Shown here: positions 23,937-35,415 of the stretch, piece after piece
Numbering within the stretch: position 1 is the stretch's first letter
How the letters are laid out: each line of letters opens with the position of its first letter
Virus record (IMG/VR): IMGVR_UViG_3300045988_179014
Location: 64,001 to 128,000 of that record
Origin: a virus
Direction: 5' to 3' (one strand)
DNA: 64,000 nucleotides
The notes under the pieces: generated by a model
The model's database searches: none
Seen by the model: the letters and a program-made list of their open reading frames with translations, nothing else
Told to the model about the DNA's origin: nothing
Position numbers and translations under genes: made by a program

Positions 23937-24024
23937 CGGAAGCGACACGATTCGAACGTGTGGCCTCTAAGAAAGAGACTCTGGTTTTCGAAACCAGCGC
24001 AATAAACCTCTCTGCCACGCTTCC
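23937..24024 (-). tRNA. tRNA-Ser (CGA), long variable arm
   Basis: Acceptor ggaagcg/cgcttcc, anticodon stem-loop ctggt-ttCGAaa-accag, long variable arm, T acacg-ttcgaat-cgtgt. Confidence 0.7.
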
Positions 24025-24098
24025 AAAATGTCAGGTTATCCCAAACAAATAAATTGTACCATATTATTCCAGTTCTACAACAGATGTTACTATAAAAC

Positions 24099-24584: not shown

Positions 24585-25315
24585 CCGTAATTTTCAGAAT
24601 CAGTGGATTTATGTACTAATGAAAATAAAACACCAGTATATTCCAAAGTATTGTCACGTTTGCTTCCGTCAAAATGGAAGAATTTATGCACCAATGCAGC
24701 TAGAGTGATGTATGCTTCTTCCACAGTTTTACCATATGCGTTCAACTGTGGATTGTAGTAATGATTGGTGTATTCAGGAGCTATGTGTTCGCCAGCTTCC
24801 ACTTCCCACATATGGGGTTGATTGTTATGAGATGGGACAGGGAACAATTCCACCTGACGAGCATAGCCATTTTGATTCCAGCGCCAAGTAGATTGATTCT
24901 TGTCTCTAGTCCAAAAAGCTGGATGTTGGTCAATGAAACCATATGCTTTGAGAAAATCAGTAGGGTCTTTCTCCCACTCAGACGCCAACTCTAAAAACAT
25001 CTGATACTGATAACGTAATATTTGTTCTCTTTGCTGGTCAGTTACGGTAAAGCATAAACTCGTTCCATCAGTTTTCGTGGCTGGAGCATAGATACGTTGT
25101 TGGTCATGTTCAACTTCTGGGAGAGTCTCTGCAAATGCAAAATTCAGGTCTTTGGATACTGCCCAAGCATAGGCTTCAATAAATGTGTCAAAGTGTTTCC
25201 CAGAAATTGTATACTGTCCGTCCACGTATTCTAGATGTTGAATGGGGCGTGGAGTCGGAACCAAAGACCTCATCCACTCAGGAAGTTCAGGCAAAATCTC
25301 TTTGTTATCAGTCAT
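24572..25315 (-). CDS. hypothetical protein
   Basis: 247-aa ORF; 13-nt overlap with the dCMP deaminase gene. Confidence 0.5.
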   Translation of the reverse strand: MTDNKEILPELPEWMRSLVPTPRPIQHLEYVDGQYTISGKHFDTFIEAYAWAVSKDLNFAFAETLPEVEHDQQRIYAPATKTDGTSLCFTVTDQQREQILRYQYQMFLELASEWEKDPTDFLKAYGFIDQHPAFWTRDKNQSTWRWNQNGYARQVELFPVPSHNNQPHMWEVEAGEHIAPEYTNHYYNPQLNAYGKTVEEAYITLAALVHKFFHFDGSKRDNTLEYTGVLFSLVHKSTDSENYGWME

Positions 25316-25472
25316 ATTTCCTACTTAGACATGTTCTGGCACACAATCAGTTTAACCAATTTTTAATGTTGAAATTTGTGGAACAATCAACACCAATCAG
25401 ACACAGTAACAGGATGGAACAGTTGATGGTTCGTTTAACATCAAACCATATGTCTATATGATTTATATGGCT

Positions 25473-25521
25473 AAAAAACGACAAAAACTCCCATTATGTC
25501 TCAATTAATACATAATGGGAG
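25473..25521 (-). terminator. rho-independent terminator at the end of the tRNA array (11-bp stem ctcccattatg/cataatgggag plus U-tract)
   Basis: The minus strand reads the hairpin followed by tttttgtcgtttttt. Confidence 0.6.
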
Positions 25522-25625
25522 TCATAAATATTGCTACAACAATTAAACCTACCCACCATGTTTCATGAGGTAGGTAGTAATTGTTGTTTGTTGTATTTGC
25601 TAAACAACAGAGAACACGTAAGATT

Positions 25626-25700
25626 GGTATTTTAACGTGCTACCATTACACCAAGGTCCCATGTAGTGGAACCTGTAGGAATCGAACCTACACCTTTCCG
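25626..25700 (-). other. permuted or fragmented tRNA-like element: 3' part (anticodon arm + T-arm + acceptor 3' strand) directly followed by a matching 5' part (acceptor 5' strand + D-arm)
   Basis: On the minus strand: ttcct-tttgaac-cggaa aggt gtagg-ttcgatt-cctac aggttcc a, then ctacat, then gggacct tg gtgt aatggtag cac g. The strand gggacct pairs with aggttcc. Confidence 0.35.
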
Positions 25701-25860
25701 GTTCAAAAGGAAGTAACCAATCTCCCACATCTGTTGATAGCATCAGTCCAGGAATCAATCCTTACCATTATAGGAGTTAGACTGAACTATTCAATTGTAT
25801 AAATTATATCATACATATACTTTTAGAGTATGAGTTCCATAGAGTATCTATCTATTGATG

Positions 25861-25934
25861 ATGATTTTAGTAGCTGAGGAGGGATTCGAACCCTCGACCT
25901 TACGATTATGATTCGCATGCTCTAACCAACTGAG
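25861..25934 (-). tRNA. tRNA-Met/Ile2 (CAT)
   Basis: ggctgag ta gctc agttggttagagc, anticodon tgcga-atCATaa-tcgta, T gaggg-ttcgaat-ccctc, acceptor 3' ctcagct a. Confidence 0.7.
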
Positions 25935-25966
25935 CTACTCAGCCAAGCGTGAGTTGAATTCTATAT

Positions 25967-26040
25967 TATGTTATTGCGCCCTTGGCAGGATTTGAACCTG
26001 CGACCTTTTGCGTCGGAAGCAAATGCTCTATCCAACTGAG
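25967..26040 (-). tRNA. tRNA-Arg (CCG)
   Basis: gcccttg ta gctc agttggatagagc, tttgc-ttCCGac-gcaaa, T gcagg-ttcaaat-cctgc, caagggc g. Confidence 0.75.
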
Positions 26041-26144
26041 CTACAAGGGCCAACTATATACTGTATACTAATTGGAGATGTGAAATTTCCATCTGTAACC
26101 TTAACTCTACTTAAGGTTGCTACACGAATTCTATAAGAAGAGGA

Positions 26145-26528
26145 TTAGGGAACTACATCATTTTTCCGAAAAACATTAATCCAATTTTCGCGAGAACCTG
26201 TGATGATGCCCTCGGAAAGCAATCTATCTACTTCTTCACTAATCCTTGCATCTCGTACTTGTGCTTTATGAATTGTCTCATAAGAACGGATATCATCAAT
26301 GGTTGGGGCTACATCTGATGCATAATCCCCACCTCGCATGAATGAATCTGACTGGATGGTTTCTACATTGAAAATTTGCCTGATTTTTTCATCAATCAGG
26401 TAGTGGTCACTCACAAGGGCTAATTTTCCATTTACATATAACGCTGACCAGTCCTCAGACCCTTCATATACAACATAACTAGTCATTTTTCCTCCGCATC
26501 TGTGTAGAGCGCATGGATGTTGTAGCAA
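26145..26528 (-). CDS. hypothetical protein
   Basis: 127-aa ORF. Confidence 0.45.
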   Translation of the reverse strand: MLQHPCALHRCGGKMTSYVVYEGSEDWSALYVNGKLALVSDHYLIDEKIRQIFNVETIQSDSFMRGGDYASDVAPTIDDIRSYETIHKAQVRDARISEEVDRLLSEGIITGSRENWINVFRKNDVVP

Positions 26529-26535
26529 TATAGTA

Positions 26536-26793
26536 TTAGTTAGACTTTATTCTTCCAGAAAATTCGTTCCAAAGAGCTTCGACTTGAGCAAGATTTTTGG
26601 GACGAATATACTGACTTAGTTCGAAGCTGGGAAATGGTGTATTCATGGATAAAAATTCAACCCCAATAGCTTGACCATCAGGGTTAGCATCCAATAAAAC
26701 CTTGTCCGTTACCTGAACGCAATGCTCAGGCAATCCCGGTTTGAGAGTGACGTATAAACCATTATTACGTCTTTCTGCTTTAAAACGAGCCAT
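26536..26793 (-). CDS. hypothetical small protein
   Basis: 85-aa ORF in tandem with 26145..26528. Confidence 0.45.
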   Translation of the reverse strand: MARFKAERRNNGLYVTLKPGLPEHCVQVTDKVLLDANPDGQAIGVEFLSMNTPFPSFELSQYIRPKNLAQVEALWNEFSGRIKSN

Positions 26794-26880
26794 TATACAC
26801 CTCCTGGATTTTTAGTATTCTAGACCCATAATCGACAAAAACCACATAGAGTTCAATCCATGTGGCTGTTTGTACTATAG

Positions 26881-26951
26881 CTGGGGTAGCAGGAATCGAA
26901 CCTACATTTCCGCATCCAAAGTGCGGCGTGATGCCGTTACACCATACCCCA
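26881..26951 (-). tRNA. tRNA-Gln (TTG)
   Basis: Starts TGGGGTA and ends TACCCCAG (U1:A72, as in E. coli tRNA-Gln); anticodon ccgca-ctTTGga-tgcgg. Confidence 0.75.
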
Positions 26952-26958
26952 ATAATAA

Positions 26959-27035
26959 TGGAGCCCCCTGTGAGATTCGAACTCACGACCTTTCGCTTAC
27001 AAGGCGAATGCTCTAACCAGCTGAGCCAAGGAGGC
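26959..27035 (-). tRNA. tRNA-Thr (TGT), CCA encoded
   Basis: gcctcct tg gctc agctggttagagc, ttcgc-ctTGTaa-gcgaa, T gtgag-ttcgaat-ctcac, agggggc t cca. Confidence 0.75.
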
Positions 27036-27039
27036 ATTG

Positions 27040-27113
27040 AAGACAGAGAACAATTCGTTGATAGTAATTAATATTGTTAATTGTGAAGTAACCATCAACT
27101 TCACTTCTGTCTT
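27040..27113. repeat. ~75-nt palindromic structured element, copy A (outer stem aagacaga/tctgtctt, inner hairpin gtgaagt-aaccatca-acttcac)
   Basis: Second copy at 31593..31667 has outer stem aagataga/tctatctt (compensatory C>T and G>A). Confidence 0.6.
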
Positions 27114-27187
27114 GGAGCGGATAACGGGATTCGAACCCGTACTAACAGTTTGGAAGACTGGTGTGCTGCCTTTGACACTACATCCGC
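27113..27187 (-). tRNA. tRNA-Gly (TCC), CCA encoded
   Basis: gcggatg, anticodon cagt-ctTCCaa-actg, T acggg-ttcgaat-cccgt, tatccgc t cca. Compare E. coli Gly(UCC) loop ccTTCCAAg. Confidence 0.7.
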
Positions 27188-27346
27188 AAGCGTACTGGTT
27201 GTTTCCTGGAGCCAGTACATAAAAACCGTATCACTTTGCGACAGTGACAGGAAACACGGTCGAACCCAACACTCAGATGCGGTTGAGTTGATGATTACAT
27301 CTGTTGGTTCTTTTTTAAATCAGGTCGCAACTGACCGCACCCAATG

Positions 27347-27419
27347 TGGACCAGAAGGGAATCGAACCCTCAGCCTCTTGTCTGCCAGACAAATGCTCTA
27401 CCAATTGAGCTACCAGCCC
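27347..27419 (-). tRNA. tRNA-Ala (GGC), G3:U70
   Basis: gggctgg ta gctc aattggtagagc, tttgt-ctGGCag-acaag, T gaggg-ttcgatt-ccctt, ctggtcc a. Confidence 0.7.
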
Positions 27420-27425
27420 TTATCG

Positions 27426-27498
27426 AGCGGACAACGGGACTCGAACCCGTAACCTTTACCTTGGCAAGATAATGCTCTACCAATTGAGCTATGTCCGC
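27426..27498 (-). tRNA. tRNA-Gly (GCC)
   Basis: gcggaca ta gctc aattggtagagc, ttatc-ttGCCaa-ggtaa, T acggg-ttcgagt-cccgt, tgtccgc t. Confidence 0.75.
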
Positions 27499-27505
27499 AT
27501 AACAA

Positions 27506-27586
27506 CATTGATTGCAGAGTTTCTAAGAGCCAATGGGGGCCTTAGCGTTAGCGACGCCCATTCCCGACGCACCCTGCAATCAATGC
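27506..27586 (-). ncRNA. candidate structured RNA: 12-bp perfect closing stem (cattgattgcag/ctgcaatcaatg) around a ~56-nt GC-rich interior
   Basis: Inverted repeat seen directly; the interior contains further complementary segments (aatggg/cccatt). Lies between tRNA-Gly(GCC) and the Y-RNA-like element. Confidence 0.35.
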
Positions 27587-27606
27587 GTTACCCAACCTAC
27601 GTTGGA

Positions 27607-27715
27607 GATGAAAGATTAACACCTTATGCCACTATTGGGAATCGAACCCAAGCCGCTCCTTTTCCGAGGAGTATTCTCCCATTAAAATATGGGACACAAA
27701 GGTTAATCTTTCATG
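27607..27715 (-). ncRNA. candidate Y RNA (YrlA-like tRNA mimic): long terminal stem formed by the 5' and 3' ends enclosing a tRNA-like domain with a canonical T-arm
   Basis: On the minus strand: catgaaagattaacctttgtg ... tcccat-atttta-atggga ... ctcc-tcggaaaa-ggag ... cttggg-ttcgatt-cccaa tagtggca taaggtgttaatctttcatc. The 5' gaaagattaacc pairs with the 3' ggtgttaatctttc. No 7-bp acceptor stem and no anticodon arm, so it is not a tRNA. An Rsr/Ro60 homolog lies 2 kb away in the same array. Confidence 0.45.
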
Positions 27716-27761
27716 ATTGTTTTGGCAGTACCTATTCTGCCATTGAACTAAAACACTAAGT

Positions 27762-27801
27762 GAAGGTAACTGTCCGAAACCTGCCAATAACAGTTACCTT
27801 C
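27762..27801. other. 12-bp perfect hairpin (gaaggtaactgt/acagttaccttc, 16-nt loop) between tRNA-like elements
   Basis: Seen directly; no clear U-tract, so it is possibly a processing or structural element. Confidence 0.4.
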
Positions 27802-27803
27802 CG

Positions 27804-27876
27804 AGCCGCCATCGGGAGTCGAACCCGAGACCTCTTTCCTACCAAGAAAGTGCTCTACCAACTGAGCTATAACGGC
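27804..27876 (-). tRNA. tRNA-Thr (GGT)
   Basis: gccgtta ta gctc agttggtagagc, ctttc-ttGGTag-gaaag, T tcggg-ttcgact-cccga, tggcggc t. Confidence 0.75.
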
Positions 27877-27893
27877 AGATAATTATTATTCCG

Positions 27894-27969
27894 AGCCATC
27901 TATGGGATTTGAACCCATGACTTCCCCATTACGAGTGGGGTGCTCTACCAAAAACTGAGCTAAGATGGC
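27894..27969 (-). tRNA. tRNA-Thr (CGT)
   Basis: gccatct ta gctc agtttttggtagagc, cccca-ctCGTaa-tgggg, T atggg-ttcaaat-cccat, agatggc t. Confidence 0.75.
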
Positions 27970-27978
27970 AACATTTGG

Positions 27979-28052
27979 CGCTCCTAGTAGGACTCGAACC
28001 TACACTCAATGGTTTAGGAAACCATGACTCTATCCTATTGAGCTATAGGAGC
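27979..28052 (-). tRNA. tRNA-Arg (CCT)
   Basis: gctccta ta gctc aataggatagagt, atggt-ttCCTaa-accat, T gtagg-ttcgagt-cctac, taggagc g. Confidence 0.75.
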
Positions 28053-28065
28053 CCATAGATTGTTG

Positions 28066-28139
28066 TCTGGGAGGTAGGATTTGAACCTACGACTTCTCGC
28101 GTCCGAGGCGAGCGACCTACCAAACTGGCCTACACCCAG
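28066..28139 (-). tRNA. tRNA-Pro (CGG), C1:G72
   Basis: ctgggtg ta ggcc agtttggtaggtc, ctcgc-ctCGGac-gcgag, T gtagg-ttcaaat-cctac, ctcccag a. Confidence 0.7.
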
Positions 28140-28166
28140 ATATTTGGTAATTTGCTGTTTACTAAG

Positions 28167-28240
28167 TGGCCCCGGTGGGACTCGAACCCACACTGTACAG
28201 GTTTTGAAGCTGTCCCCTCTACCAATTGGGGTACGGGGCC
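28167..28240 (-). tRNA. type-I (short variable arm) tRNA with leucine anticodon CAA (reads UUG), A73; isotype uncertain
   Basis: ggccccg ta cccc aattggtaga gggg, anticodon arm acagc-ttCAAaa-cctgt (4 bp plus a C:C), variable acagt (5 nt), T gtggg-ttcgagt-cccac, cggggcc a. The body resembles Bacillus tRNA-Trp. The alternative TCA reading does not form a stem. Confidence 0.5.
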
Positions 28241-28276
28241 ATTGACCATAATATAAGTTCGTAGTTTTTATGATAG

Positions 28277-28349
28277 TACCCCGAACGGGATTTGAACCCG
28301 TGTTACCGCCTTGAAAGAGCGGTGTCCTAGGCCACTAGACGACCGGGAT
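28277..28349 (-). tRNA. tRNA-Glu (TTC)
   Basis: atcccgg t cgtc tagtggcctaggac, ccgct-ctTTCaa-ggcgg, taac, acggg-ttcaaat-cccgt, tcggggt a. Close to E. coli tRNA-Glu. Confidence 0.75.
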
Positions 28350-29143
28350 ATGTAGGAGAGTTAGAATTGCTCTCCTAATGACAACCTTTTGCTGGATTAT
28401 GGTTTCCCAGCGTTTCCACGATGTCCCCACCGTAGTTGCCGCGCCTGGTTGCTATGGACCAACCACTCCTTATGTCGTACACTACTCCACAGATTTGGTT
28501 TCGACAAGCGGTTGCAAGCCGCTCATCTGCACTACTTTCTTATGAACACAGTTTGACCTTGCGAGTCGCACCATGGCTGAGTTCCGGAATACGGCTCAGC
28601 ATTAAGACGCTTTCATATACAACAGGAAAAGGCTTTTGCTTTCTGCTAATCTCTCATTCCACGAATGAATATGGGGTATGACTAGAGATGTGCTTTTCCA
28701 TGAAGTTCCGCAACCTTTTGGGCTACAGAATGCTTCACACCTCTACTGCTTTCGTTGTCACACTACTTACAGTCTCGTTCTCATCTTGAACTCGCCAATC
28801 CAAGACTTAAACTCATGGTATCCGCTCTTGCTTGACAGGCTCGAACTAAATACCTCGCATCACAAGTCATTTATCCTTGTTGTTTGTCTTCTCTGTCCAC
28901 TTTGCGTAAGTGGCTGTGCTACACCGATTGGCTCTCGCACAGATGAAGCAACTCGGATAAATGGCATCCTACTCCTTTTGTAGAATGCGCCTTGGTGCAG
29001 TGCATGAAGTGCCTCTTGCGAGGTGGCAGGCTGTCAAACCCACCTTTCGCCATCTTGCGATGGTTTATGCGTCATGCCGCGTCGTCAGGGAAGAAGTTTT
29101 GACACTTCATGATACAGAAATCATTCATCTACATGATTCCCTG
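28350..29143 (-). ncRNA. ~800-nt ORF-free, GC-elevated, hairpin-rich segment inside the tRNA array: candidate large structured noncoding RNA (class unknown; strand assumed from neighbours)
   Basis: No minus-strand ORF of 60 aa or more; the plus-strand ORFs here overlap in three frames with no RBS. Many local inverted repeats (e.g. aggagag-ttagaattg-ctctcct, aagcgg-ttgcaa-gccgct, tggctgagttccgg/ccggaatacggctcagc). Bounded precisely by tRNA-Glu and the tRNA with anticodon TAG. Confidence 0.4.
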
Positions 29144-29218
29144 TTATGTAATGTGCCCTTGAGAGGACTCGAACCTCCAACCTTCTGAGTCTAAGTCAGA
29201 TGCCTCTACCAGATTGGG
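29144..29218 (-). tRNA. type-I tRNA with leucine anticodon TAG (reads CUA/CUG), A73
   Basis: gcccttg ta gccc aatctggtag aggc, clean anticodon arm tctga-ctTAGac-tcaga, variable aggtt (5 nt), T ggagg-ttcgagt-cctct, caagggc a. 75 nt, no long variable arm. Confidence 0.6.
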
Positions 29219-29386
29219 CTACAAGGGCATTAATATTCCTTGGTATTCACTGATTACTCTCGCTATAAAAACAAGAATAATCAGTGAACCAAGTAGCTAG
29301 ACTTATAGGGGCTACCCCGGCTAGCACCATGCGTTAGGGAGACCAACCAAGTTGACCTCCCCCTCAATGAGGACCTGAATCCTCAG

Positions 29387-29473
29387 CGGAGACGGCAGGA
29401 TTCGAACCTGCGGAAGGGATTGACCTTCACCCGCTTTCCAAGCGAGCGCTTTAGGCCTCTCAGCCACGTCTCC
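29387..29473 (-). tRNA. tRNA-Ser (GGA), long variable arm
   Basis: ggagacg tg gctg agaggcctaaagc, ctcgc-ttGGAaa-gcggg, variable tgaaggtcaatcccttc, T cgcagg-ttcgaat-cctgc, cgtctcc g. Confidence 0.7.
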
Positions 29474-29640
29474 ATTTAAGACTCTCTCTGAAGTTATCAT
29501 TTTCATGGTAGTTGTTGCTACTACTTTACCAGCTTAACCCATGGATTCCAATTTGTCAAATCGAGGTATTCCTCCAAACTTGGTCCATTCTTCAGTTGGT
29601 TTTACCAGTTTAACACACCTTTGAAAGCTATGTCAACTAG

Positions 29641-29732
29641 TGGCGGAGGACAAGGGAATCGAACCCTTACCGGAGTTGAATCCGGCCCTGTTTTCAAGAC
29701 AGGTGCAGCAACCCAATATCTGCCTGTCCTCC
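29641..29732 (-). tRNA. tRNA-Ser (TGA), long variable arm, CCA encoded
   Basis: ggaggac, cctgt-ctTGAaa-acagg, variable gccggattcaactccggt, T aaggg-ttcgatt-ccctt, gtcctcc g cca. Confidence 0.7.
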
Positions 29733-29791
29733 ATGGAGTTGTTGAATCAGTATACCATAGATTACACATTGATTCAACAACCACTATTGTT

Positions 29792-31375
29792 TTACTTTTC
29801 CCAAGGCCAACCAGTATCGAATCCTCTTTCAATGAGAGGAATCGTCTGGAACCCCTTATCAGACAATCCACCAAACGTGAATCGTCCGGGTTTATTGACA
29901 GCTTGTGCAGCTTCGTATCCAGCAAGATTCCAGGTAAAGGTTGGAACATTTGTTGGAACAACACCTTCAAATACGTCCACTGTACCACTATTGTAGTAAC
30001 GATTGTATCCAAAATAACCGTTCTGCTCATCGGTCAATAGGATTACTCTATCATGACCATTGTAGGCAGTTTCCAACGCAATACGTGTGTCAGTACCTCC
30101 AAAAGGCGCTGGCATGGCTTCTGCTACTCGAAGTAGGTCGTTTGAACGAATTTCCTGTTTCGTTGCCGAATCGTTGTACGTCCATACTTCTGCATTTTCC
30201 GCTCGCAGTGCTAGAGCAGCTGCAAACATATTAGCTGCATCTGAACGCAGTAATGTGCCTCTTCTTGACATATACGTATACATGGAACCGGAATTGTCAA
30301 CCAGAATAAGTGTACGTCCTGCCAATTGAGGAATATTGGATAGAGCGCCATTCGCCCCTTGTTGAAGCGCACCTGCAAAATCAAGCGGAGCTGACCGGTA
30401 AGCAGCCAAAAATTCTATAGGCATGGTGCGAGAATTTGCTACCAGTTTTTCATCTGCCAAAATGCTGTTGATTTTAGCAATAGTAGCAGGGCCAACACCT
30501 GAATCTGCAATACGACGTAAGTTCATACGCAACGCTTGATACCCCATGAAGGGAACGAGATTATCCCATACTTCAGCAGGAATCTTCCCCAAAGCTCCTG
30601 CCACAACTTCATGAGTCAACCGCGCTTTTCGGATGACGCGTTCAGCTTCATTCCCCGTTAGAAGTTCAACCTGTGCAGTCTTACTCAATGCCAAGAATTC
30701 ACGTCGTGCTTTGATGATGGGAAGGTTGCTGTCATCAAAATCGCGATTGTATGCATCAGCAATAACTGCATTGAATAAAGCTTCTTGGTGGATATCCTTT
30801 GGTGTGGGATGTGTCAGGTTTAACACATCTCGAAGTGACACAGCACCATTGGAAGCACGTCCACGCCACTTCAAAAAGGAAGTCTCGGTAAATAGGGTAT
30901 TCAGTGCATCTCCAACCCCACGTTTGACACATGAGGGGATACGGCGTCCATATCGAGACATCCAATACGCCAATACATCTGACGCTTCATCAATACGACC
31001 AATAGTAGCTCGTATAATGCCACGGTTCTTTCCAGCCAGTCCAGCATCCAACCGTGCTTTTACTGTTTCCACCGCAATAATGGTTGGGACTGAACGCAAT
31101 CCTACAACATTCCGTAGCCAACCGACTAAACCATGAACCCAATCAGCATCCATGGCAACATTGGATACTAATTTACTAATACGGTCTTGTCGTTCTTCTG
31201 CGGTTTCATAAAATGTGTCCTCATTGAGTGAAGTTACTGCGGTCAAGAACAGCTCGGAACGAGGGTCACGCTTATACCCAAATCCCCCTTCAGGATTTTG
31301 AATAACTTGACCAGTTGTTGATAATGGTCCTACAACATTCCGAACCTTCGTATTAGCATTGTTTAAACGAGCCAT
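29792..31375 (-). CDS. rsr: Ro60-related protein Rsr (TROVE domain plus von Willebrand A domain)
   Basis: 527 aa. C-terminal vWA with MIDAS TLILVDNSGSMY; N-terminal TROVE-like region. Size and architecture match bacterial Rsr. RBS AAAGAGAGG before the ATG. Confidence 0.65.
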   Translation of the reverse strand: MARLNNANTKVRNVVGPLSTTGQVIQNPEGGFGYKRDPRSELFLTAVTSLNEDTFYETAEERQDRISKLVSNVAMDADWVHGLVGWLRNVVGLRSVPTIIAVETVKARLDAGLAGKNRGIIRATIGRIDEASDVLAYWMSRYGRRIPSCVKRGVGDALNTLFTETSFLKWRGRASNGAVSLRDVLNLTHPTPKDIHQEALFNAVIADAYNRDFDDSNLPIIKARREFLALSKTAQVELLTGNEAERVIRKARLTHEVVAGALGKIPAEVWDNLVPFMGYQALRMNLRRIADSGVGPATIAKINSILADEKLVANSRTMPIEFLAAYRSAPLDFAGALQQGANGALSNIPQLAGRTLILVDNSGSMYTYMSRRGTLLRSDAANMFAAALALRAENAEVWTYNDSATKQEIRSNDLLRVAEAMPAPFGGTDTRIALETAYNGHDRVILLTDEQNGYFGYNRYYNSGTVDVFEGVVPTNVPTFTWNLAGYEAAQAVNKPGRFTFGGLSDKGFQTIPLIERGFDTGWPWEK

Positions 31376-31440
31376 GATAACCTCTCTTTACGGTTTATAC
31401 AGGGGATATCGCTGGTGTTTTGAATCCACTGAGAACCAGC

Positions 31441-31486
31441 AAAACAAATACTGTTTGCCATAATTCTGGTCAGTATTTGTTTATTA
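31441..31486. terminator. hairpin (caaatactg/cagtatttg) flanked by aaaa and tttatt; bidirectional terminator-like element between tRNA-Asp and rsr
   Basis: Seen directly. Confidence 0.45.
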
Positions 31487-31504
31487 CATCAGGGATTGAT
31501 TTTG

Positions 31505-31578
31505 CGACCCGTACCGGACTCGAACCGGCGACCTCTGCCGTGACAGGGCAGCGCTCTAACCAACTGAGCTAACGGGCC
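31505..31578 (-). tRNA. tRNA-Asp (GTC)
   Basis: ggcccgt ta gctc agttggttagagc, ctgcc-ctGTCac-ggcag, T gccgg-ttcgagt-ccggt, acgggtc g. Confidence 0.75.
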
Positions 31579-31592
31579 ATATTTTGTATTAC

Positions 31593-31667
31593 AAGATAGA
31601 GAATAATTTGTTGATGGTGGGTTAATATTGCGAATTGTGAAGTAACCATCAACTTCACTTCTATCTT
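31593..31667. repeat. ~75-nt palindromic structured element, copy B
   Basis: See copy A at 27040..27113. Both copies sit immediately 5' (in minus-strand sense) of a tRNA gene. Confidence 0.6.
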
Positions 31668-31725
31668 GTGTAGTTCTATAGTCAATTATTCAACACAAAT
31701 CAACATGTGTAGAAATATGTTGTTG

Positions 31726-31811
31726 TGTCCATGATGGGAGTCGAACCCACACGCCCTTACGGACACTGCGCCCTCAACACAGCCTGTCTACCAAATTTCC
31801 AGCACATGGAC
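31726..31811 (-). tRNA. tRNA-Leu (GAG), canonical type II
   Basis: gtccatg tg ctgg aaatttggtagac, ctgtg-ttGAGgg-cgcag, variable arm tgtccgtaagggcgtg (compare E. coli tgtccttacggacgtg), T gtggg-ttcgact-cccat, catggac a. Confidence 0.7.
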
Positions 31812-31936
31812 AAAATAATATATTAATTAATCTTAATAATTCTATGTTATTGTAACAATACCTTATCTGTTTTCAATAAAGCTTGTACATTGAAAATTGC
31901 TTTATTGACCATTGTTCTTTTTTTTACTAGTTTGGG

Positions 31937-32009
31937 TACGGATGACTGGATTCGAACCAGTGACCTTTTCCGCGTCATGGAAATGCTCTACCAACTGAGC
32001 TACACCCGC
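31937..32009 (-). tRNA. tRNA-Val (GAC)
   Basis: gcgggtg ta gctc agttggtagagc, tttcc-atGACgc-ggaaa, T actgg-ttcgaat-ccagt, catccgt a. Confidence 0.75.
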
Positions 32010-32100
32010 AGAATACTAGTTTCTGTCAATTACTATATTTGATTGTAATGTAAAAACAGTTATGACTATATGCAATAAATTATAGGCAATTTGTAATGAG

Positions 32101-32173
32101 TGGCACCAAAGGGAATCGAACCCTTGACCTTTCGCTTTTCAGGCGAACGCTCTGCCAACTGAGCTACAGTGCC
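32101..32173 (-). tRNA. tRNA-Phe (GAA)
   Basis: ggcactg ta gctc agttggcagagc, ttcgc-ctGAAaa-gcgaa, T aaggg-ttcgatt-ccctt, tggtgcc a. Confidence 0.75.
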
Positions 32174-32206
32174 AAAACTTAGTGATTATACTTTCACATT
32201 ATGTTG

Positions 32207-32279
32207 TGCGTTGCCTGGGACTCGAACCCAGAACCCACTGATTAAGAGTCAGTTGCTCTACCAATTGAGCTAGCAACGC
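32207..32279 (-). tRNA. tRNA-Lys (CTT)
   Basis: gcgttgc ta gctc aattggtagagc, actga-ctCTTaa-tcagt, T ctggg-ttcgagt-cccag, gcaacgc a. Confidence 0.75.
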
Positions 32280-32300
32280 GTGTTTTATAATAATTTGAGA

Positions 32301-32609
32301 TTACTCTTTGTCCCATCCTTCATGTTCTGGGTGTTTCTCCCAAAATGACTTCTTGTGAGAATGTGAGTGAAAAGGTTGAAGCAATTTGTTAATCCAGGGA
32401 ACCTGCTCACACAGCTCATGAGCACATTCATGGCACAACACAGCTTCGTAATCCGTTTCCCCTAACACACCAGAATGCCCTAAGTTGTCAACAAACATAC
32501 CATATCCACCGTAAAAGCCTATCCATAAAGCATTGTTGAATTGATAGTTAGTATTTTCATTGGGGAATTGTGGAGCCAATTCTGTTTCACAAGCTGTGCA
32601 TTGGGCCAT
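32301..32609 (-). CDS. small cysteine/histidine-rich (zinc-finger-like) protein
   Basis: MAQCTACETEL ... CHECAHELC. Start moved to the internal ATG at 32609 (GGGGAGAG upstream), because the track start overlaps the tRNA at 32646-32718. Confidence 0.4.
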   Translation of the reverse strand: MAQCTACETELAPQFPNENTNYQFNNALWIGFYGGYGMFVDNLGHSGVLGETDYEAVLCHECAHELCEQVPWINKLLQPFHSHSHKKSFWEKHPEHEGWDKE

Positions 32610-32645
32610 CGTTTTCTCTCCCCGGTCTAATTCGTATTTCTCCAG

Positions 32646-32718
32646 TGCCCTTGGTGGGACTCGAACCCACACTAAACAGATTTTAAGTCTGCTGCCTCTA
32701 CCATTGGGCTACAAGGGC
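32646..32718 (-). tRNA. type-I tRNA with leucine anticodon TAA (reads UUA), A73
   Basis: gcccttg ta gccc aatggtag aggc, gcaga-ctTAAaa-tctgt, variable ttagt (5 nt), T gtggg-ttcgagt-cccac, caagggc a. Same acceptor and D-arm as the TAG tRNA. Confidence 0.6.
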
Positions 32719-32723
32719 ATAAT

Positions 32724-32800
32724 TGGTACGGCAGGGGGGATTTGAACCCACCTATTTCCACTTTATAAGAGTGGCGCTCATACCGATTAGCATCTGCCGT
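32724..32800 (-). tRNA. tRNA-Ile (TAT), CCA encoded
   Basis: acggcag at gcta atcggtatgagc, ccact-ctTATaa-agtgg, T gtggg-ttcaaat-ccccc (one U:C mismatch), ctgccgt a cca. Confidence 0.6.
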
Positions 32801-32889
32801 ATGTAGTTTTCACATGTTGTTAAGTTGTGAATCCATTATAACTGATTCATCCAATATTTGCAACAATACTTCTCTTTGTTTTTTGCTAG

Positions 32890-32965
32890 CACCCTCGGTG
32901 GGACTCGAACCCACATCAATCCAATTATGCGCTGCCCGCTTAGAAGGCGGTGCCAGTACGAGGGC
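32890..32965 (-). other. aberrant tRNA-like gene with Arg anticodon TCT: acceptor, anticodon arm and T-arm present, no D-arm; 21-nt insert between anticodon arm and T-arm
   Basis: gccctcg ta ctggca ccgc-cTTCTAa-gcgg gcagcgcataattggattgat gtggg-ttcgagt-cccac cgagggt g (76 nt). The loop matches E. coli Arg(UCU) ccTTCTAAg. Confidence 0.4.
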
Positions 32966-33138
32966 ATGTTTTCATATGTTGGCGACTTGTCGGGTCTCTC
33001 ACCCGAAGCTCTGGAGTACAAGTCCAGTGTGTTCTTCCCAGAATAGATGACACAAACCACTTTTTCTGGTAGTTCTAGTCCTTGAGGAAGAATTTTGTGC
33101 TTCTTCCTCATTCTGCTAGACCTTACACCATCGCGTCG

Positions 33139-33212
33139 TCGGGAAGACAGGATTTGAACCTGCGACTTCTGGTACCCAAAACCAGCGCTCTACCAAACTG
33201 AGCTACATCCCG
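33139..33212 (-). tRNA. tRNA-Pro (TGG), C1:G72
   Basis: cgggatg ta gctc agtttggtagagc, ctggt-ttTGGgt-accag, T gcagg-ttcaaat-cctgt, cttcccg a. Confidence 0.7.
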
Positions 33213-33255
33213 GTATTTAAGAATATTTTATTGTAAATTATCAGACTAAATTCAG

Positions 33256-33328
33256 CACGACAGGAGGGATTCGAACCCCCATCTAACACTTTTGGAGAGT
33301 GTCGCTCTACCAATTGAGCTACTGTCGT
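33256..33328 (-). tRNA. tRNA-Trp (CCA)
   Basis: acgacag ta gctc aattggtagagc, acact-ctCCAaa-agtgt, T ggggg-ttcgaat-ccctc, ctgtcgt g. Confidence 0.75.
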
Positions 33329-33370
33329 ATGGATAAATGGCATCCTAATGTTAAAGTGCACACGAAGATA

Positions 33371-33649
33371 CTAGGTACTCTTTAACATCCATTTTTCATC
33401 CAGAATAGATGCTGCATTCTGGATATCTGTAATGGATAACACACCTTCAACATATGAGAAACTACTATTGTTATCACATATGCAAAAATCATAAATTGTT
33501 CCATCTTCAGCTAAGCCATAACAAAGATGAAACATGTCATCTATCTCAAAAGTAATGGATGCAATACGTCCATTACGATATGCGTCATGAAATTCAATGG
33601 ATGTTGGAGTTTTTCCTCGGCTTATCAAATCACCAACATATGAAAACAT
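33371..33649 (-). CDS. small hypothetical protein beginning MFSYVGDL
   Basis: Start moved to the ATG at 33649 to avoid overlap with the tRNA at 33672. The first 8 codons are repeated on the plus strand at 32966 (MFSYVGDLSG..., 26 aa). Confidence 0.35.
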   Translation of the reverse strand: MFSYVGDLISRGKTPTSIEFHDAYRNGRIASITFEIDDMFHLCYGLAEDGTIYDFCICDNNSSFSYVEGVLSITDIQNAASILDEKWMLKST

Positions 33650-33671
33650 GACATCACATCCTTCAATCACT

Positions 33672-33746
33672 TGGTGGAAGCTAGGGGATTCGAACCCCTG
33701 ACCCTCTGCTTGCAAAACAGATGCTCTACCACTGAGCTAAGCCCCC
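33672..33746 (-). tRNA. tRNA-Ala (TGC), G3:U70, CCA encoded
   Basis: gggggct ta gctc agtggtagagc, tctgt-ttTGCaa-gcaga, T agggg-ttcgaat-cccct, agcttcc a cca. Confidence 0.75.
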
Positions 33747-33780
33747 AATAATAAATATGATTGAAAATTATATACATGCG

Positions 33781-33853
33781 TTGGGACATTGGGATTTGAA
33801 CCCAAGACCTCATCTGTATCAGAGATGCGCTCTAACCACTGAGCTATGCCCCA
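33781..33853 (-). tRNA. tRNA-Ile (GAT)
   Basis: tggggca ta gctc agtggttagagc, catct-ctGATac-agatg, T ttggg-ttcaaat-cccaa, tgtccca a. Confidence 0.75.
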
Positions 33854-33882
33854 TTAATGTCTCTCATCAAGAGAGACAATTG

Positions 33883-33953
33883 CTGCCCCACCTGGATTCG
33901 AACCAAGATTAACTGAGTCAGAGTCAGTTGTGCTGCCATTACACTATAGGGCA
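33883..33953 (-). tRNA. tRNA-Gln (CTG), U1:A72
   Basis: tgcccta ta gtgt aatggcagcac, actga-ctCTGac-tcagt, T cttgg-ttcgaat-ccagg, tggggca g. Confidence 0.7.
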
Positions 33954-33982
33954 AGGAGAGTATTATTGATTACTTTGTATTA

Positions 33983-34037
33983 GGCCCAGTGGTGCTGTTG
34001 TTGTGGGCTGGTATTTTTTTGAGGTTACCACTGGGCC
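33983..34037. other. long inverted repeat ggcccagtggt/accactgggcc enclosing a T7 tract; terminator-like
   Basis: Seen directly between tRNA-Gln(CTG) and tRNA-Val(TAC). Confidence 0.4.
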
Positions 34038-34099
34038 AACAACATGGTTGGTATAACATAGGTTTTTTCTTATGAAATCACTATACCATAACTACCATG

Positions 34100-34176
34100 T
34101 GGTGGACACAGAGATAATCGAAATCCCGACCTCCTGGGTGTAAACCAGGCGCTCTAACCAACTGAGCTATGCGTCC
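34100..34176 (-). tRNA. tRNA-Val (TAC), CCA encoded
   Basis: ggacgca ta gctc agttggttagagc, cctgg-ttTACac-ccagg, T gggat-ttcgatt-atctc, tgtgtcc a cca. Confidence 0.7.
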
Positions 34177-34200
34177 ATTGTGAAACTAAGCAACATTGTG

Positions 34201-34273
34201 TGCTCTGAACGGGATTTGAACCCGTGTTGCTGCCTTGAGAGAGCGGCGTCCTAGGCCACTAGACGACCAGAGC
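34201..34273 (-). tRNA. tRNA-Glu (CTC)
   Basis: gctctgg t cgtc tagtggcctaggac, ccgct-ctCTCaa-ggcag, T acggg-ttcaaat-cccgt, tcagagc a. Confidence 0.7.
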
Positions 34274-34294
34274 ATAAAATGTTGGTTTTTATTT

Positions 34295-34367
34295 TGGAAC
34301 GGGTAAGGATTCGAACCTTACATATACCGGTAAAAGGCCGGCCGATTTGCCATTAATCTACCATTCC
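34295..34367 (-). tRNA. atypical tRNA-like with Lys anticodon TTT (odd T-arm/acceptor junction, C33); possibly a degenerate duplicate of tRNA-Lys(TTT)
   Basis: ggaatgg ta gatt aatggca aatc g gccgg-ccTTTta-ccggt atat taagg-ttcgaat-cctta c ccgttcc a. An extra nucleotide lies between the T-stem and the acceptor stem. Confidence 0.35.
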
Positions 34368-34547
34368 ATGGGCAATTTCTTACCCATTTTCTCATCCCCA
34401 TCCAAGACTCTAACTTGGATGCCCTTCCGGTGCATTATCTTTATGCTAATGGGGCAACCATAGGTTCATTCCATATTGTAGGACAAACTATTCGAATTCA
34501 TCTATCCTGACAAAAATGAATTGTTCCCGTAGGTTGGATTATATCCG

Positions 34548-34620
34548 CTCCTCCACCTGGACTCGAACCAGGAACCGTTCGGTTAACAGCCGAATGCTCT
34601 GCCAATTGAGCTACAGAGGA
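34548..34620 (-). tRNA. tRNA-Asn (GTT), copy 1
   Basis: TCCTCTGTAG 5' end as in E. coli tRNA-Asn; ttcgg-ctGTTaa-ccgaa, T cctgg-ttcgagt-ccagg, tggagga g. Confidence 0.75.
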
Positions 34621-34661
34621 ATATAGTATTACATTACAATAATACTTCAACATTTAGTTGG

Positions 34662-34736
34662 TACGCCCTGTGGGACTCGAACCCACGACCTACGGATTAA
34701 AAGTCCGCAGCTCTAAACCAACTGAGCTAAGGGCGC
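34662..34736 (-). tRNA. tRNA-Lys (TTT)
   Basis: gcgccct ta gctc agttggtttagagc, gcgga-ctTTTaa-tccgt, T gtggg-ttcgagt-cccac, agggcgt a. Confidence 0.75.
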
Positions 34737-34808
34737 ATGATAACTTCCCAATTTTTCCTTTGGATACTCGAAAACGCTCCATAATGGAAAAATTATCTCT
34801 GGGATGCG

Positions 34809-34891
34809 TGGATAGGGAGGGATTCGAACCCCCAGCGTTTCTTATGTCACGGTTTTACAGACCGCTTACTTCACCATTTGTATACCTATCC
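34809..34891 (-). tRNA. tRNA-Tyr (GTA), long variable arm
   Basis: ggatagg ta taca aatggtgaagta, gcggt-ctGTAaa-accgt, variable gacataagaaacgc, T tgggg-ttcgaat-ccctc, cctatcc a. Confidence 0.7.
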
Positions 34892-34926
34892 AGGTAATGT
34901 TTGTTTATATTCAATTGTTTTCTCAG

Positions 34927-35013
34927 CGGAGACGACAGGATTCGAACCTGCGGAGGGTGTAACCCCTCGACAGTTTAGCAAACTGTTGCTTTAGGCCTCT
35001 CAGCCACATCTCC
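34927..35013 (-). tRNA. tRNA-Ser (GCT), long variable arm
   Basis: ggagatg tg gctg agaggcctaaagc, acagt-ttGCTaa-actgt, variable cgaggggttacaccctc, T gcagg-ttcgaat-cctgt, cgtctcc g. Confidence 0.7.
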
Positions 35014-35046
35014 AAGTATAACATATGCATGCTATTGATGCAAAAG

Positions 35047-35117
35047 AGGTGCCTATGGGATTCGAACCCATGTACACGGTTTTGCAGACCGCTGCCTCGC
35101 CACTCAGCCAAGGCACC
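35047..35117 (-). tRNA. tRNA-Cys (GCA), U73
   Basis: ggtgcct, gcggt-ctGCAaa-accgt, T atggg-ttcgaat-cccat, aggcacc t. Confidence 0.7.
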
Positions 35118-35118
35118 G

Positions 35119-35194
35119 CACTCCGGGTGAGAGTCGAACTCACATGTGTCCATTAACCTTTCTACTGGTTCGTAGCCAGAGGGTATACCGGAGT
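35119..35194 (-). other. aberrant tRNA-like gene with Arg anticodon ACG: acceptor, anticodon arm and T-arm present, no D-arm; 20-nt insert between anticodon arm and T-arm
   Basis: actccgg ta taccc tctgg-ctACGaa-ccagt agaaaggttaatggacacat gtgag-ttcgact-ctcac ccggagt g (76 nt). Anticodon arm matches E. coli Arg(ACG) cggctACGaaccg. Same rearranged layout as 32890..32965. Confidence 0.4.
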
Positions 35195-35221
35195 AATACA
35201 ATCCAAATATTAGGATGATTC

Positions 35222-35260
35222 ATAGATTCTACATTTGTTGGTAACAGTAGAATCTATTTT
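35222..35260 (+). terminator. rho-independent terminator-like hairpin (11-bp stem atagattctac/gtagaatctat plus TTTT) oriented for the plus strand
   Basis: Seen directly; there is no plus-strand gene upstream, so it may terminate antisense transcription. Confidence 0.4.
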
Positions 35261-35262
35261 GG

Positions 35263-35336
35263 GGTGACTGACCGGATTCGAACCGGCGAAATCCTGAGTC
35301 ACAGTCAGGCGTGTTAACCTCTCCACCACAGTCACC
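35263..35336 (-). tRNA. tRNA-His (GTG) with G-1:C73
   Basis: g gtgactg tg gtgg agaggttaacacgc, cctga-ctGTGac-tcagg, T gccgg-ttcgaat-ccggt, cagtcac c. Confidence 0.75.
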
Positions 35337-35342
35337 ATTCTG

Positions 35343-35415
<73 letters not shown>

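Follow-up and report, generated by a model that had tools for sequence, protein, structure and literature searches.

A leucine tRNA of type I structure has been characterised in Streptomyces coelicolor, in which the type I tRNA-Leu(CAA) is leucylated by the single cellular LeuRS (ScoLeuRS) with a kcat/Km of 6.25 s-1 uM-1, compared with 14.2 s-1 uM-1 for type II (Fan et al. 2019, NAR, PMC6614811). The same tRNA is left uncharged in vitro by the E. coli LeuRS and by one Streptomyces LeuRS (PMC6614811), so the acceptance of type I tRNA-Leu depends on the host enzyme. Fan et al. point to the leucine-specific domain of LeuRS as being involved. The Streptomyces LeuRS has been stated in print to be the only prokaryotic LeuRS that charges both types. 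With the Aquifex LeuRS, removal of the variable arm from tRNA-Leu chiefly reduces affinity (PMC2377443). Animal mitochondria also have type I tRNA-Leu, and human mitochondrial tRNA-Leu(UUR) is not charged by the S. coelicolor LeuRS. The mitochondrial tRNAs have reduced bodies unrelated to those of the genes described here, and the likeness is convergent, with no family relationship.

In the open-access literature we found no description of type I tRNA-Leu from phages; such tRNAs came up only in the S. coelicolor study and in a brief mention of a short loop in a mycobacterial tRNA array. The mycobacterial clusters (PMC6582537) recall the phage array described here in that a short-loop tRNA-Leu(UAG) lies within a large tRNA array, there that of an actinobacterium and with HNH endonuclease genes nearby, but they are chromosomal and are likened to it by description only.

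The three short tRNA-Leu genes of the present phage share a 5-nt variable loop, A73, U8-A14 and the presence of type II isoacceptors alongside with the S. coelicolor type I tRNA-Leu(CAA), of which the variable loop is ACAGC, compared with ACAGT in the phage CAA gene. As judged from the published description, they differ in being phage-encoded, in being three (CAA, UAG and UAA) and in having U48 rather than C48. An earlier note on this DNA had assigned the tRNA-Leu of bacteria and phages to type II. This is too strong a statement, since the type I form has been studied biochemically in S. coelicolor (PMC6614811) and phage records commonly contain it.

Structure of the leucine tRNA genes in the array

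The window, which is the whole stretch of 64,000 nucleotides of viral DNA analysed, carries 40 tRNAs and one tmRNA on its minus strand between 19.4 and 35.4 kb according to ARAGORN. Four of these calls are tRNA-Leu genes, with the anticodons CAA, UAG, GAG and UAA (Table 1).

Table 1. Leucine tRNA genes and the array that contains them (feature, position in the window, strand, basis of the call)
tRNA-Leu(CAA), type I, 75 nt	28166..28240	-	ARAGORN; Rfam tRNA; cloverleaf parse; type I Leu profile
tRNA-Leu(UAG), type I, 76 nt	29153..29228	-	ARAGORN; Rfam; cloverleaf parse; type I Leu profile
tRNA-Leu(UAA), type I, 74 nt	32645..32718	-	ARAGORN; Rfam; cloverleaf parse; type I Leu profile
tRNA-Leu(GAG), canonical type II, 87 nt	31725..31811	-	ARAGORN; cloverleaf parse; type II Leu profile ranks first
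tRNA array, 40 tRNA genes with GOLLD RNA, Ro60-like gene and small ORFs	23584..35415	-	

ARAGORN and Rfam agree with the earlier note on three short tRNAs with the anticodons CAA, UAG and UAA, and ARAGORN also calls the type II GAG gene. Against Rfam RF00005 (gathering score 29), the CAA gene has the lowest score of the three short genes at 54.9 bits, while the UAG and UAA genes reach 65.3 and 68.8 bits (E-values 4e-9 to 7e-13). The note had given sizes of 73–75 nt with loops of 4–5 nt; the short loops hold, at 5 nt in every case, but the lengths are 74–76 nt, and the coordinates given for the UAG gene, 29144–29218, were ~10 nt off.

Cloverleaf parsing gives variable loops of ACAGT in the CAA gene, AGGTT in the UAG gene and TTAGT in the UAA gene, together with seven acceptor pairs and the A73 that had been read earlier, and it uncovers no overlooked long variable arm. 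U33 and A37 flank the anticodon in all three. The variable regions thus fall within the 4–7 nt, without an extra stem, that define type I, and lack the stemmed arm of more than 10 nt of canonical type II, which is found in the GAG gene, the sole long-arm gene among the four tRNA-Leu (15-nt variable arm, G13·A22, A73 and G37). All three short genes have a Leu-type core of a 3-bp D stem, C13·A22, A14, A15-U48, G18G19 and A73. The D arm of the CAA gene is CCCC-AATTGGTAG-AGGG with C13·A22. Those of the UAG gene (GCCC-AATCTGGTAG-AGGC; anticodon loop CUUAGAC) and the UAA gene (GCCC-AATGGTAG-AGGC; anticodon loop CUUAAAA) have identical D stems, and the acceptor (GCCCTTG/CAAGGGC) is also the same. This confirms part of the identity claimed for this pair; the D loops, on the other hand, differ by a 2-nt insertion (AATGGTAG vs AATCTGGTAG). 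Bacterial tRNA-Leu reading CUN usually have G37 (m1G), and the UAG gene has A37, not G37.

The anticodon stem of the CAA gene ends, next to the loop, in a C31·C39 mismatch. A reading with a 9-nt loop is therefore possible, but CAA is central in it, with U33 before and A37 after, so that a UCA reading does not fit. The alternative UCA anticodon, and with it an opal-reading tRNA, was sought in this gene and rejected, as no stem register places UCA at positions 34–36. Single-sequence minimum-free-energy folding of the UAG gene gives no cloverleaf, and its cloverleaf rests on ARAGORN, Rfam and the family alignment.

The canonical type II comparators, E. coli leuZ, the 85-nt tRNA-Leu(UAG) of T5 and the 81–85 nt tRNA-Leu of Arthrobacter phage Atuin, share with the window genes the 3-bp D stem with N13·A22, the D loop AAT(N)GGTAG, A15-U48, A73 and a GCCC-type acceptor. 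The short genes differ from them in the 5-nt loop in place of an 11–18-nt arm and in having C13 rather than G13 or A13. In the alignment with E. coli leuZ the D-arm register is identical, and a single clean gap of 10 nt opens where the variable arm lies.

No LeuRS or other aminoacyl-tRNA synthetase was found among the 30 window ORFs scanned against Pfam (the genome is ~189 kb). Structured RNAs other than tRNAs also occur in the array, namely GOLLD and a D-arm-less tRNA-like element. A deaminase encoded within it (24099–24584) was considered as the tRNA deaminase TadA and set aside, as it scores better as a dCMP/ComEB-type deaminase. Megablast found no close relative of the 10-kb array among cultured phages, with matches to single tRNAs only. 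Searching for loci related to the Ro60-like protein gave one match, a near-identical strain (L001), which is too close for covariation analysis but usable as a check of conservation. Between the two, divergence is 1.07% in the tRNA genes and 3.58% in the intergenic DNA of the array, and all changes in the three short genes lie in loops.

Relatives in phages and bacteria

The exact 19-base D-arm motif TAGCCCAAT(N0-3)GGTAGAGGCA, which does not include the anticodon, was searched for in viral contigs and in bacteria, the latter with one genome per species. It occurs in at least 118 viral contigs, and among the matches listed 88 of the 92 motif-bearing tRNAs have a Leu anticodon (UAG, UAA, CAA, GAG, CAG or AAG), four have odd loops and none belongs to another isotype. 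In bacteria the motif is present in at least 120 species (loci); Leu anticodons are found in 93/96 tRNAs among the matches listed, which are mostly single tRNA-Leu(UAA) genes of Actinomycetota. Across hundreds of genomes of phages and bacteria, the type I body carries all six Leu anticodons.

Among 137 unique type I Leu tRNAs, C13·A22 is present in 125, A73 in 130, A15-U48 in 122 and a 5-nt variable loop in 118. The type II Leu tRNAs of the same loci have the same core (N13·A22 in 28/30, A73 in 30/30 and A15-U48 in 29/30). As the loci behind these family counts were chosen with the motif itself, the ratio of type I to type II is biased. N13·A22 predominates in only one other isotype with a short variable loop, Cys. 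The stems of the family covary, with 91–100% canonical pairs and 4–6 pair types per position, which, like the confinement to loops of the changes against L001, speaks for selection on these tRNAs. The CAA gene has a D-arm variant (TACCCCAAT..GGTAGAGGGG) that also occurs outside Leu: 4 of the 11 viral loci that show it have a near-identical tRNA with a GUG anticodon and C73.

Several cultured phages carry the class, including the Felix O1-like Escherichia phage mistaenkt, with an identical UAG/CAA/UAA type I trio, Shigella phage Sf19, cyanophages P-RSM6 and P-SSM7, and phages of Streptomyces, Mycobacterium, Bacillus and Pseudomonas. Well-known cultured phages with type I genes have E. coli and Salmonella, cyanobacteria, Bacillus, Pseudomonas and actinobacteria as hosts. 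Their genes share the D arm NCCC-AATNGGNAG-AGGN and A73 with the window genes and have variable loops of 5–6 nt, but nucleotide identity is only 76–91%, the acceptor and anticodon stems are unlike and the hosts are other ones. In the phage records they are annotated as plain tRNA-Leu. When E. coli genomes were queried in distant mode, the UAA gene gave no match, hence no close chromosomal or prophage copy is present in E. coli at that sensitivity.

By these comparisons, the three genes are new members of a widespread type I tRNA-Leu class of phages and Actinobacteria. The earlier proposal of structurally non-canonical Leu tRNAs is supported by the Leu core and by the occurrence of the body with all six Leu anticodons.

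Probable leucine acceptance and the loss of the variable arm

We propose that the three genes are very probably functional elongator tRNAs of this natural type I class that accept leucine. The CAA tRNA would decode UUG, the UAA tRNA UUA and UUG, and the UAG tRNA CUA and CUG; with the type II tRNA-Leu(GAG) for CUU and CUC, the phage would have decoders for all six Leu codons. The class combines a leucine-specific core (3-bp D stem, N13·A22, A14, the A15-U48 Levitt pair, G18G19 and A73) with a 5-nt loop replacing the arm. Bacterial LeuRS ignores the anticodon and the sequence of the variable arm; what it recognises is the tertiary core together with the discriminator base, and an armless tRNA can therefore remain its substrate. 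The Ser and Tyr tRNAs of the same loci remain type II, as expected if LeuRS alone tolerates the loss of the arm. On this reading the genes are genuine tRNA-Leu, and the type I class to which they belong is a known one that has received too little notice; they are presumably leucylated by the enzyme of the host, which is probably an actinobacterium or another Gram-positive.

Given genuine Leu tRNAs, the loss of the arm may itself be adaptive, with evasion of host nucleases or modifying toxins that recognise type II tRNAs by their long arm. About 60% of the phage Leu codons would then be freed from the host type II tRNA-Leu and resistant to arm-recognising factors, which would explain the abundance of the class in phages of unrelated hosts, among them E. 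coli, for which failure of the LeuRS to charge a type I tRNA-Leu is reported. The class is indeed very common in phages across many host phyla, and type I and type II interchange within related phages: Arthrobacter phage Atuin has the RNR / Trp-Pro / Ro / tRNA-array / DnaE layout in common with the window, and its CAA, GAG and UAG tRNAs are type II. Eukaryotic Schlafen nucleases prefer type II tRNAs. However, a literature search found no bacterial defence that targets the variable arm of tRNA-Leu, and the bacterial Schlafen studied so far cleaves the anticodon arm (PMC13056530). The phage has also retained its type II GAG tRNA. In Actinomycetota, members of the class are ordinary genes of the chromosome, and this favours an evolution that is neutral or driven by LeuRS over an arms race. 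We therefore consider an adaptive loss unlikely.

A second alternative is that the genes encode tRNA-shaped RNAs that are poorly charged by the host LeuRS and serve mainly outside decoding, for instance as decoys for defence nucleases that attack tRNA or as processing signals of the array transcript. The rejection of a type I tRNA-Leu by E. coli LeuRS in vitro agrees with this, since coliphages nevertheless have three such genes, as does the company of the non-tRNA structured RNAs in the array. Phage tRNAs are also known to counter tRNA-cleaving defences (PMC10264068, PMC11555353). For a decoy, however, there would be no need to combine the right Leu anticodon with a Leu-type core and A73. Only the six Leu triplets serve as anticodons in the family; they are conserved, U33 precedes them and a purine follows at 37, and the UUR readers have A36-A37-A38. 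Moreover, in many Actinomycetota the type I tRNA-Leu(UAA) is the lone such gene of the 8-kb locus retrieved, as would suit a role in decoding. A mainly non-decoding function is thus improbable, and leucine-accepting elongators remain the preferred reading.

Isotype and the meaning of the leucine codons

Isotype was assigned with our own profile HMMs after masking of the anticodon and removal of the variable region; of the control tRNAs of the window, 27/35 were placed correctly. For all three short genes the type I Leu profile ranks first, by 17–22 bits. For the CAA gene it scores 55.8 bits, with type II Leu as the runner-up at 36.8; for the UAG gene the values are 50.2 and 33.4 for the runner-up; and for the UAA gene they are 65.4 and 43.8, with type II Leu again second. 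The GAG gene scores highest with the type II Leu profile. The UAG/CAA/UAA trio of Shigella phage Sf14 has Leu as its top tRNAscan-SE isotype, with published scores of 67.4, 49.1 and 60.2 (PMC12482277), and the type I form is seen in the Sf14 relatives mistaenkt and Sf19.

These results bear on the suggestion that the genes are mis-acylating or recoding tRNAs, with the body of another isotype (Trp, Lys or other) under a Leu anticodon, inserting another amino acid at UUA, UUG or CUA. A short variable loop is atypical of bacterial tRNA-Leu, the D loop AATTGGTAGAG is superficially like that of the Trp and Lys tRNAs of the array, and Leu-type D arms with a non-Leu anticodon do exist, if rarely (Ala CGC in locus L202 and Ile AAU in locus L221). 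The Trp and Lys tRNAs of the array, however, have a regular 4-bp D stem, and tRNA-Trp has G73 and a D-arm register unlike that of the short genes. The resemblance to tRNA-Trp which the earlier note saw in the CAA body is not upheld, as the Trp profile lies outside the top four for this gene. A Trp-type body would show G73, a 4-bp D stem and similarity to tRNA-Trp, and the three genes have A73 and C13·A22 instead; body and anticodon are both Leu, with no mismatch between them. The bodies also lack the G3·U70 needed by AlaRS, the G73 of Trp, Gln, Asp, Glu, Asn and Ser, and the long arm needed by SerRS. By established identity rules, the synthetases other than LeuRS that use A73 read the anticodon.

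The codons themselves speak against recoding as well. UUG, UUA and CUA make up 61% of the 1359 Leu codons, so their misreading would change ~5% of residues. At the UUG, UUA and CUA positions of NrdE, 83%, 73% and 56% of the aligned homologue cells are Leu (background 8%), and at CUU, CUC and CUG 55–71% are. This test addresses the meaning of the codons and says nothing on which tRNA reads them. UUA, UUG and CUA keep their standard meaning in this phage, and no change of the genetic code is signalled. With the Leu core, the Leu profiles, a body that bears the six Leu anticodons and nearly nothing else, and the placement of these codons on conserved leucines, recoding tRNAs are extremely improbable.

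For annotation, the outcome is that the three genes are to be recorded as tRNA-Leu. Type I tRNA-Leu is no mere curiosity of S. coelicolor and mitochondria, as the D-arm motif alone picks it out in at least 118 contigs of viruses and in at least 120 species of bacteria. This spread fits awkwardly with the published claim that among prokaryotes only the Streptomyces LeuRS charges both types, and the acceptance of type I tRNA-Leu by bacterial LeuRS is directly testable using the phage genes.

Three short tRNA-Leu genes and their D arm

The short tRNAs with leucine anticodons CAA, UAG and UAA, described in an earlier note from sequence, have been confirmed by ARAGORN, Rfam and a cloverleaf parse. 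The long-variable-arm (type II) tRNA-Leu(GAG) was also found in the same array. The UAG gene is present, but the note placed it about 10 nt off. In a position-by-position parse, each of the three short-variable-loop (type I) genes has a seven-pair acceptor stem, A73 and a 5-nt variable loop (ACAGT, AGGTT and TTAGT in CAA, UAG and UAA, respectively). The UAA and UAG genes have acceptor and D stems in common. Despite a C31·C39 mismatch in the CAA gene, no register yields UCA as its anticodon, and that reading was rejected. The acceptor stem of tRNA-Arg(CCG), GCCCTTG/CAAGGGC, is identical to that of the UAA and UAG genes, from which this tRNA differs by G73 and a regular D arm; the common stem may have arisen by chance or reflect a common origin.

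The informative part of the tRNA bodies is the D arm. Ordinary type I tRNAs of the array (e.g., Trp and Lys) have the D arm GCTC-AATTGGTA-GAGC with a 4-bp stem. The D arm of the three genes, (G/C)CCC-AAT(N)GGTAG-AGG(C/G), is one nucleotide longer, and C13·A22 closes its 3-bp stem. Type II tRNA-Leu (E. coli leuZ and the window's GAG gene) has the same register, and in a multiple alignment the three genes match leuZ across the D arm, with one clean gap of 10 nt where the variable arm lies. They carry A14, A15 with U48, G18G19 and A73, which are listed determinants of E. coli LeuRS identity (PMC6614811).

Per-isotype profiles were trained on viral tRNAs from outside the window after masking the anticodons and removing the variable regions; they gave the correct isotype for 27 of the window's 35 control tRNAs. 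The type I Leu profile scored highest for all three genes (CAA, 55.8; UAG, 50.2; UAA, 65.4 bits), followed by type II Leu for CAA and UAA. Trp is outside the top four profiles for the CAA gene, leaving the proposed resemblance of its body to tRNA-Trp unsupported.

Association of the body with leucine

The family was compared using 137 unique type I and 30 type II Leu tRNAs from the same loci. C13·A22 is found in 125/137 type I tRNAs and N13·A22 in 28/30 type II tRNAs; A73 occurs in 130/137 and 30/30, and A15-U48 in 122/137 and 29/30, respectively. A 5-nt variable loop, not applicable to type II, is present in 118 of the 137. Among other short-variable-loop isotypes, N13·A22 is predominant only in Cys. 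In type I tRNAs, pairing in the acceptor, anticodon and T stems is 91-100% canonical, and 4-6 pair types occur at each position, so that there is extensive covariation around an almost invariant D arm. Ser and Tyr tRNAs of the same loci are still type II. This agrees with the identity rules, by which the long arm is used by SerRS and bacterial TyrRS but not by LeuRS.

IMG/VR was searched with the D-arm motif alone (TAGCCCAAT, 0-3 nt, GGTAGAGGCA), leaving out anticodon information, and at least 118 contigs contain it. Among the matches listed, 92 ARAGORN tRNAs contain the motif; 88 have Leu anticodons (UAG, UAA, CAA, GAG, CAG, AAG), four have aberrant loops, none is of another isotype, and all are 72-79 nt long except one of 84 nt. 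In bacteria (one genome per species) the motif occurs at 120 or more loci. Among the matches listed there, 93/96 tRNAs have Leu anticodons (UAA in 66), most are the sole tRNA within the fetched 8-kb locus, and the carriers are mainly Actinomycetota (Nocardiopsis, Nocardia, Lentzea, Leifsonia, Streptomyces). The version of the D arm found in the CAA gene (TACCCCAAT..GGTAGAGGGG) is less frequent and less Leu-exclusive: seven of its 11 viral loci have Leu tRNAs, and four have one near-identical tRNA with a GUG (His) anticodon and C73. Two bacterial MAGs also have tRNAs that combine a Leu-type D arm with a non-Leu anticodon. One has an AAU anticodon; the other, from an Obscuribacterales MAG, has a CGC (Ala) anticodon and A73, lacks G3·U70, and is a candidate Leu-for-Ala mistranslator.

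The earlier note had also raised recoding. Among the phage's Leu codons (n=1359), UUG is the main one (40.8%), with UUA at 12.7% and CUA at 7.7%. When the window's NrdE was aligned with five homologues (60-67% identity), Leu occupied 83% of homologue cells at UUG, 73% at UUA, 56% at CUA and 55-71% at CUU/CUC/CUG, against a background of 8% over all columns. This alignment argues against a recoded meaning of UUG, UUA and CUA.

The array was compared with that of L001, a near-identical strain (IMG/VR contig 3300045988_187329, 188,933 bp; 96.7% nucleotide identity across 18 kb). Divergence is 1.07% in tRNA genes, 3.58% in array intergenic DNA and 4.84% in array coding sequences. The three genes differ at seven positions, every one in loops or at position 26, and no change was found in their stems, anticodons, C13·A22 or A73.

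The phage, its probable host and the other array genes

The source is an uncultivated large phage, and the window has a G+C content of 42%. In addition to the features in the table, it encodes a class Ib ribonucleotide reductase (RNR), RecG- and PIF1-type helicases, a PASTA-domain protein and a G5 + NlpC/P60 lysin. A scan of 30 window ORFs revealed no synthetase gene. The closest cultured relatives are actinobacteriophages: the Ro60-like protein is 39% identical to that of Arthrobacter phage Atuin, DnaE 38-39% to Streptomyces and Saccharomonospora phages, and NrdE about 60% to Arthrobacter and Microbacterium phages. One tRNA-Pro is 91% identical to that of Atuin, with which the window has a local layout in common (RNR, tRNA-Trp, tRNA-Pro, Ro-like gene, tRNA array, DnaE). 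Based on these relatives and this layout, the host is likely an actinobacterium or other Gram-positive.

Features of the window
Feature	Position	Strand	Remarks
DnaE, remainder	10604-13360	-	split DnaE-type polymerase
Clamp-loader-like subunit	in 10604-16322	-	between the two DnaE parts
DnaE, PHP + N-terminal NTPase part	14832-16322	-	
DUF4379/HNH homing endonucleases	17606-19360, 38896-40464, 53891-55792	-	three large genes among several, across replication module
RNA-rich region	19.4-35.4 kb	-	tmRNA, 40 tRNA genes, GOLLD RNA, Ro60/TROVE-like gene
tmRNA	19374-19738	-	Rfam 111 bits; tag peptide ANAIQDDYTLAV; just downstream of array
tRNA-Arg(CCG)	25976-26050	-	
tRNA-Leu(CAA), type I	28166-28240	-	ARAGORN + Rfam
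GOLLD RNA (RF02032)	28357-28745	-	222.8 bits (gathering score 150); probably reaching about 29150
tRNA-Leu(UAG), type I	29153-29228	-	ARAGORN + Rfam
Ro60/TROVE-like RNA-binding protein	29792-31375	-	mid tRNA array
tRNA-Leu(GAG), type II	31725-31811	-	
tRNA-Leu(UAA), type I	32645-32718	-	ARAGORN + Rfam
tRNA-Ile(UAU)	32724-32800	-	low score, Rfam 44.9 bits
tRNA-like element	32890-32965	-	Rfam 29.8 bits, just over gathering score; missed by ARAGORN
Best YrlA match	33157-33307		27 bits (gathering score 69); overlaps tRNA-Pro and tRNA-Trp
tRNA-Lys(UUU)	34295-34367	-	loop CCUUUUA, 6-nt variable loop, Rfam 48.6 bits; very poor isotype-profile scores
SNF2 helicase	40467-43439	-	weak intein-like insertion, Pfam E = 6e-4, below threshold

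Within the array, GOLLD is flanked by tRNA-Glu(UUC) and type I tRNA-Leu(UAG) and shares their strand; its region is 2.5% diverged from L001. Between the Rfam match and tRNA-Leu(UAG) lie roughly 400 non-coding nt, possibly the variable 5' half of GOLLD. A Ro-like gene amid the tRNA array is likewise seen in Atuin, Streptomyces phages and Gordonia phages; no Y RNA above threshold was found. In the tRNA-like element, the acceptor stem (G1·U72, G73), T arm and anticodon arm (loop CUUCUAA; UCU, Arg AGA) are good; only 4 nt occupy the place of the D arm, and an insert of 17-21 nt with AUAAUUGGAU comes after the anticodon stem. L001 carries the same element with 100% identity. AGA (119) and CGU (323) codons are used even though the array offers no second tRNA-Arg(UCU) and no tRNA-Arg(ACG). 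The UAU anticodon of tRNA-Ile is rare in bacteria; the L001 copy is called two bases longer and differs in the D arm and 5' end.

Charging by LeuRS and distribution of the class

According to established work, bacterial LeuRS takes no account of the anticodon, nor does it depend on the variable-arm sequence. In Aquifex LeuRS, removal of the variable arm chiefly reduced affinity (PMC2377443). A natural type I tRNA-Leu(CAA) is charged by S. coelicolor LeuRS with about half the efficiency of a type II isoacceptor, an ability mapped to the leucine-specific domain (PMC6614811). Charging is host-dependent, since E. coli LeuRS and one Streptomyces LeuRS reportedly left this tRNA uncharged (PMC6614811). 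Three considerations lead us to infer that the host LeuRS would charge the window's three tRNAs: the host is probably an actinobacterium, chromosomal type I tRNA-Leu is abundant in Actinomycetota, and the genes show the pattern of conservation described above.

The type I class is already known, from biochemical work on S. coelicolor and from a remark on mycobacterial tRNA arrays (PMC6582537), and phage records routinely annotate its members as tRNA-Leu; the three genes are new members. As a BLAST query, the UAA gene matches 226 phage records, nearly all annotated tRNA-Leu, including Felix O1-like phages of E. coli, Salmonella, Shigella and Erwinia, cyanophages, and phages of Streptomyces, Mycobacterium, Gordonia, Rhodococcus, Bacillus, Lactobacillus and Pseudomonas. 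The Felix O1-like Escherichia phage mistaenkt carries a tRNA-Leu trio that matches the window's in anticodons (UAG/CAA/UAA) and D arm; its three genes are 76-78 nt long. In published tRNAscan-SE isotype scores (PMC12482277), Leu ranks first for the Leu trio of Shigella phage Sf14, which may also be type I. Unlike the window's three, the tRNA-Leu of T5 and Atuin are type II; one type is thus replaced by the other from phage to phage.

The class is recognisable by C13·A22 in a CCC/GGN D stem, A15-U48, A73 and an NNAGU-type 5-nt loop. No paper describing this signature and the wide spread of the class in phages was found in the open-access literature. The trio is ordinary for the window and of modest interest at the level of the class, which is far more widely distributed among phages and bacteria than primary publications convey.
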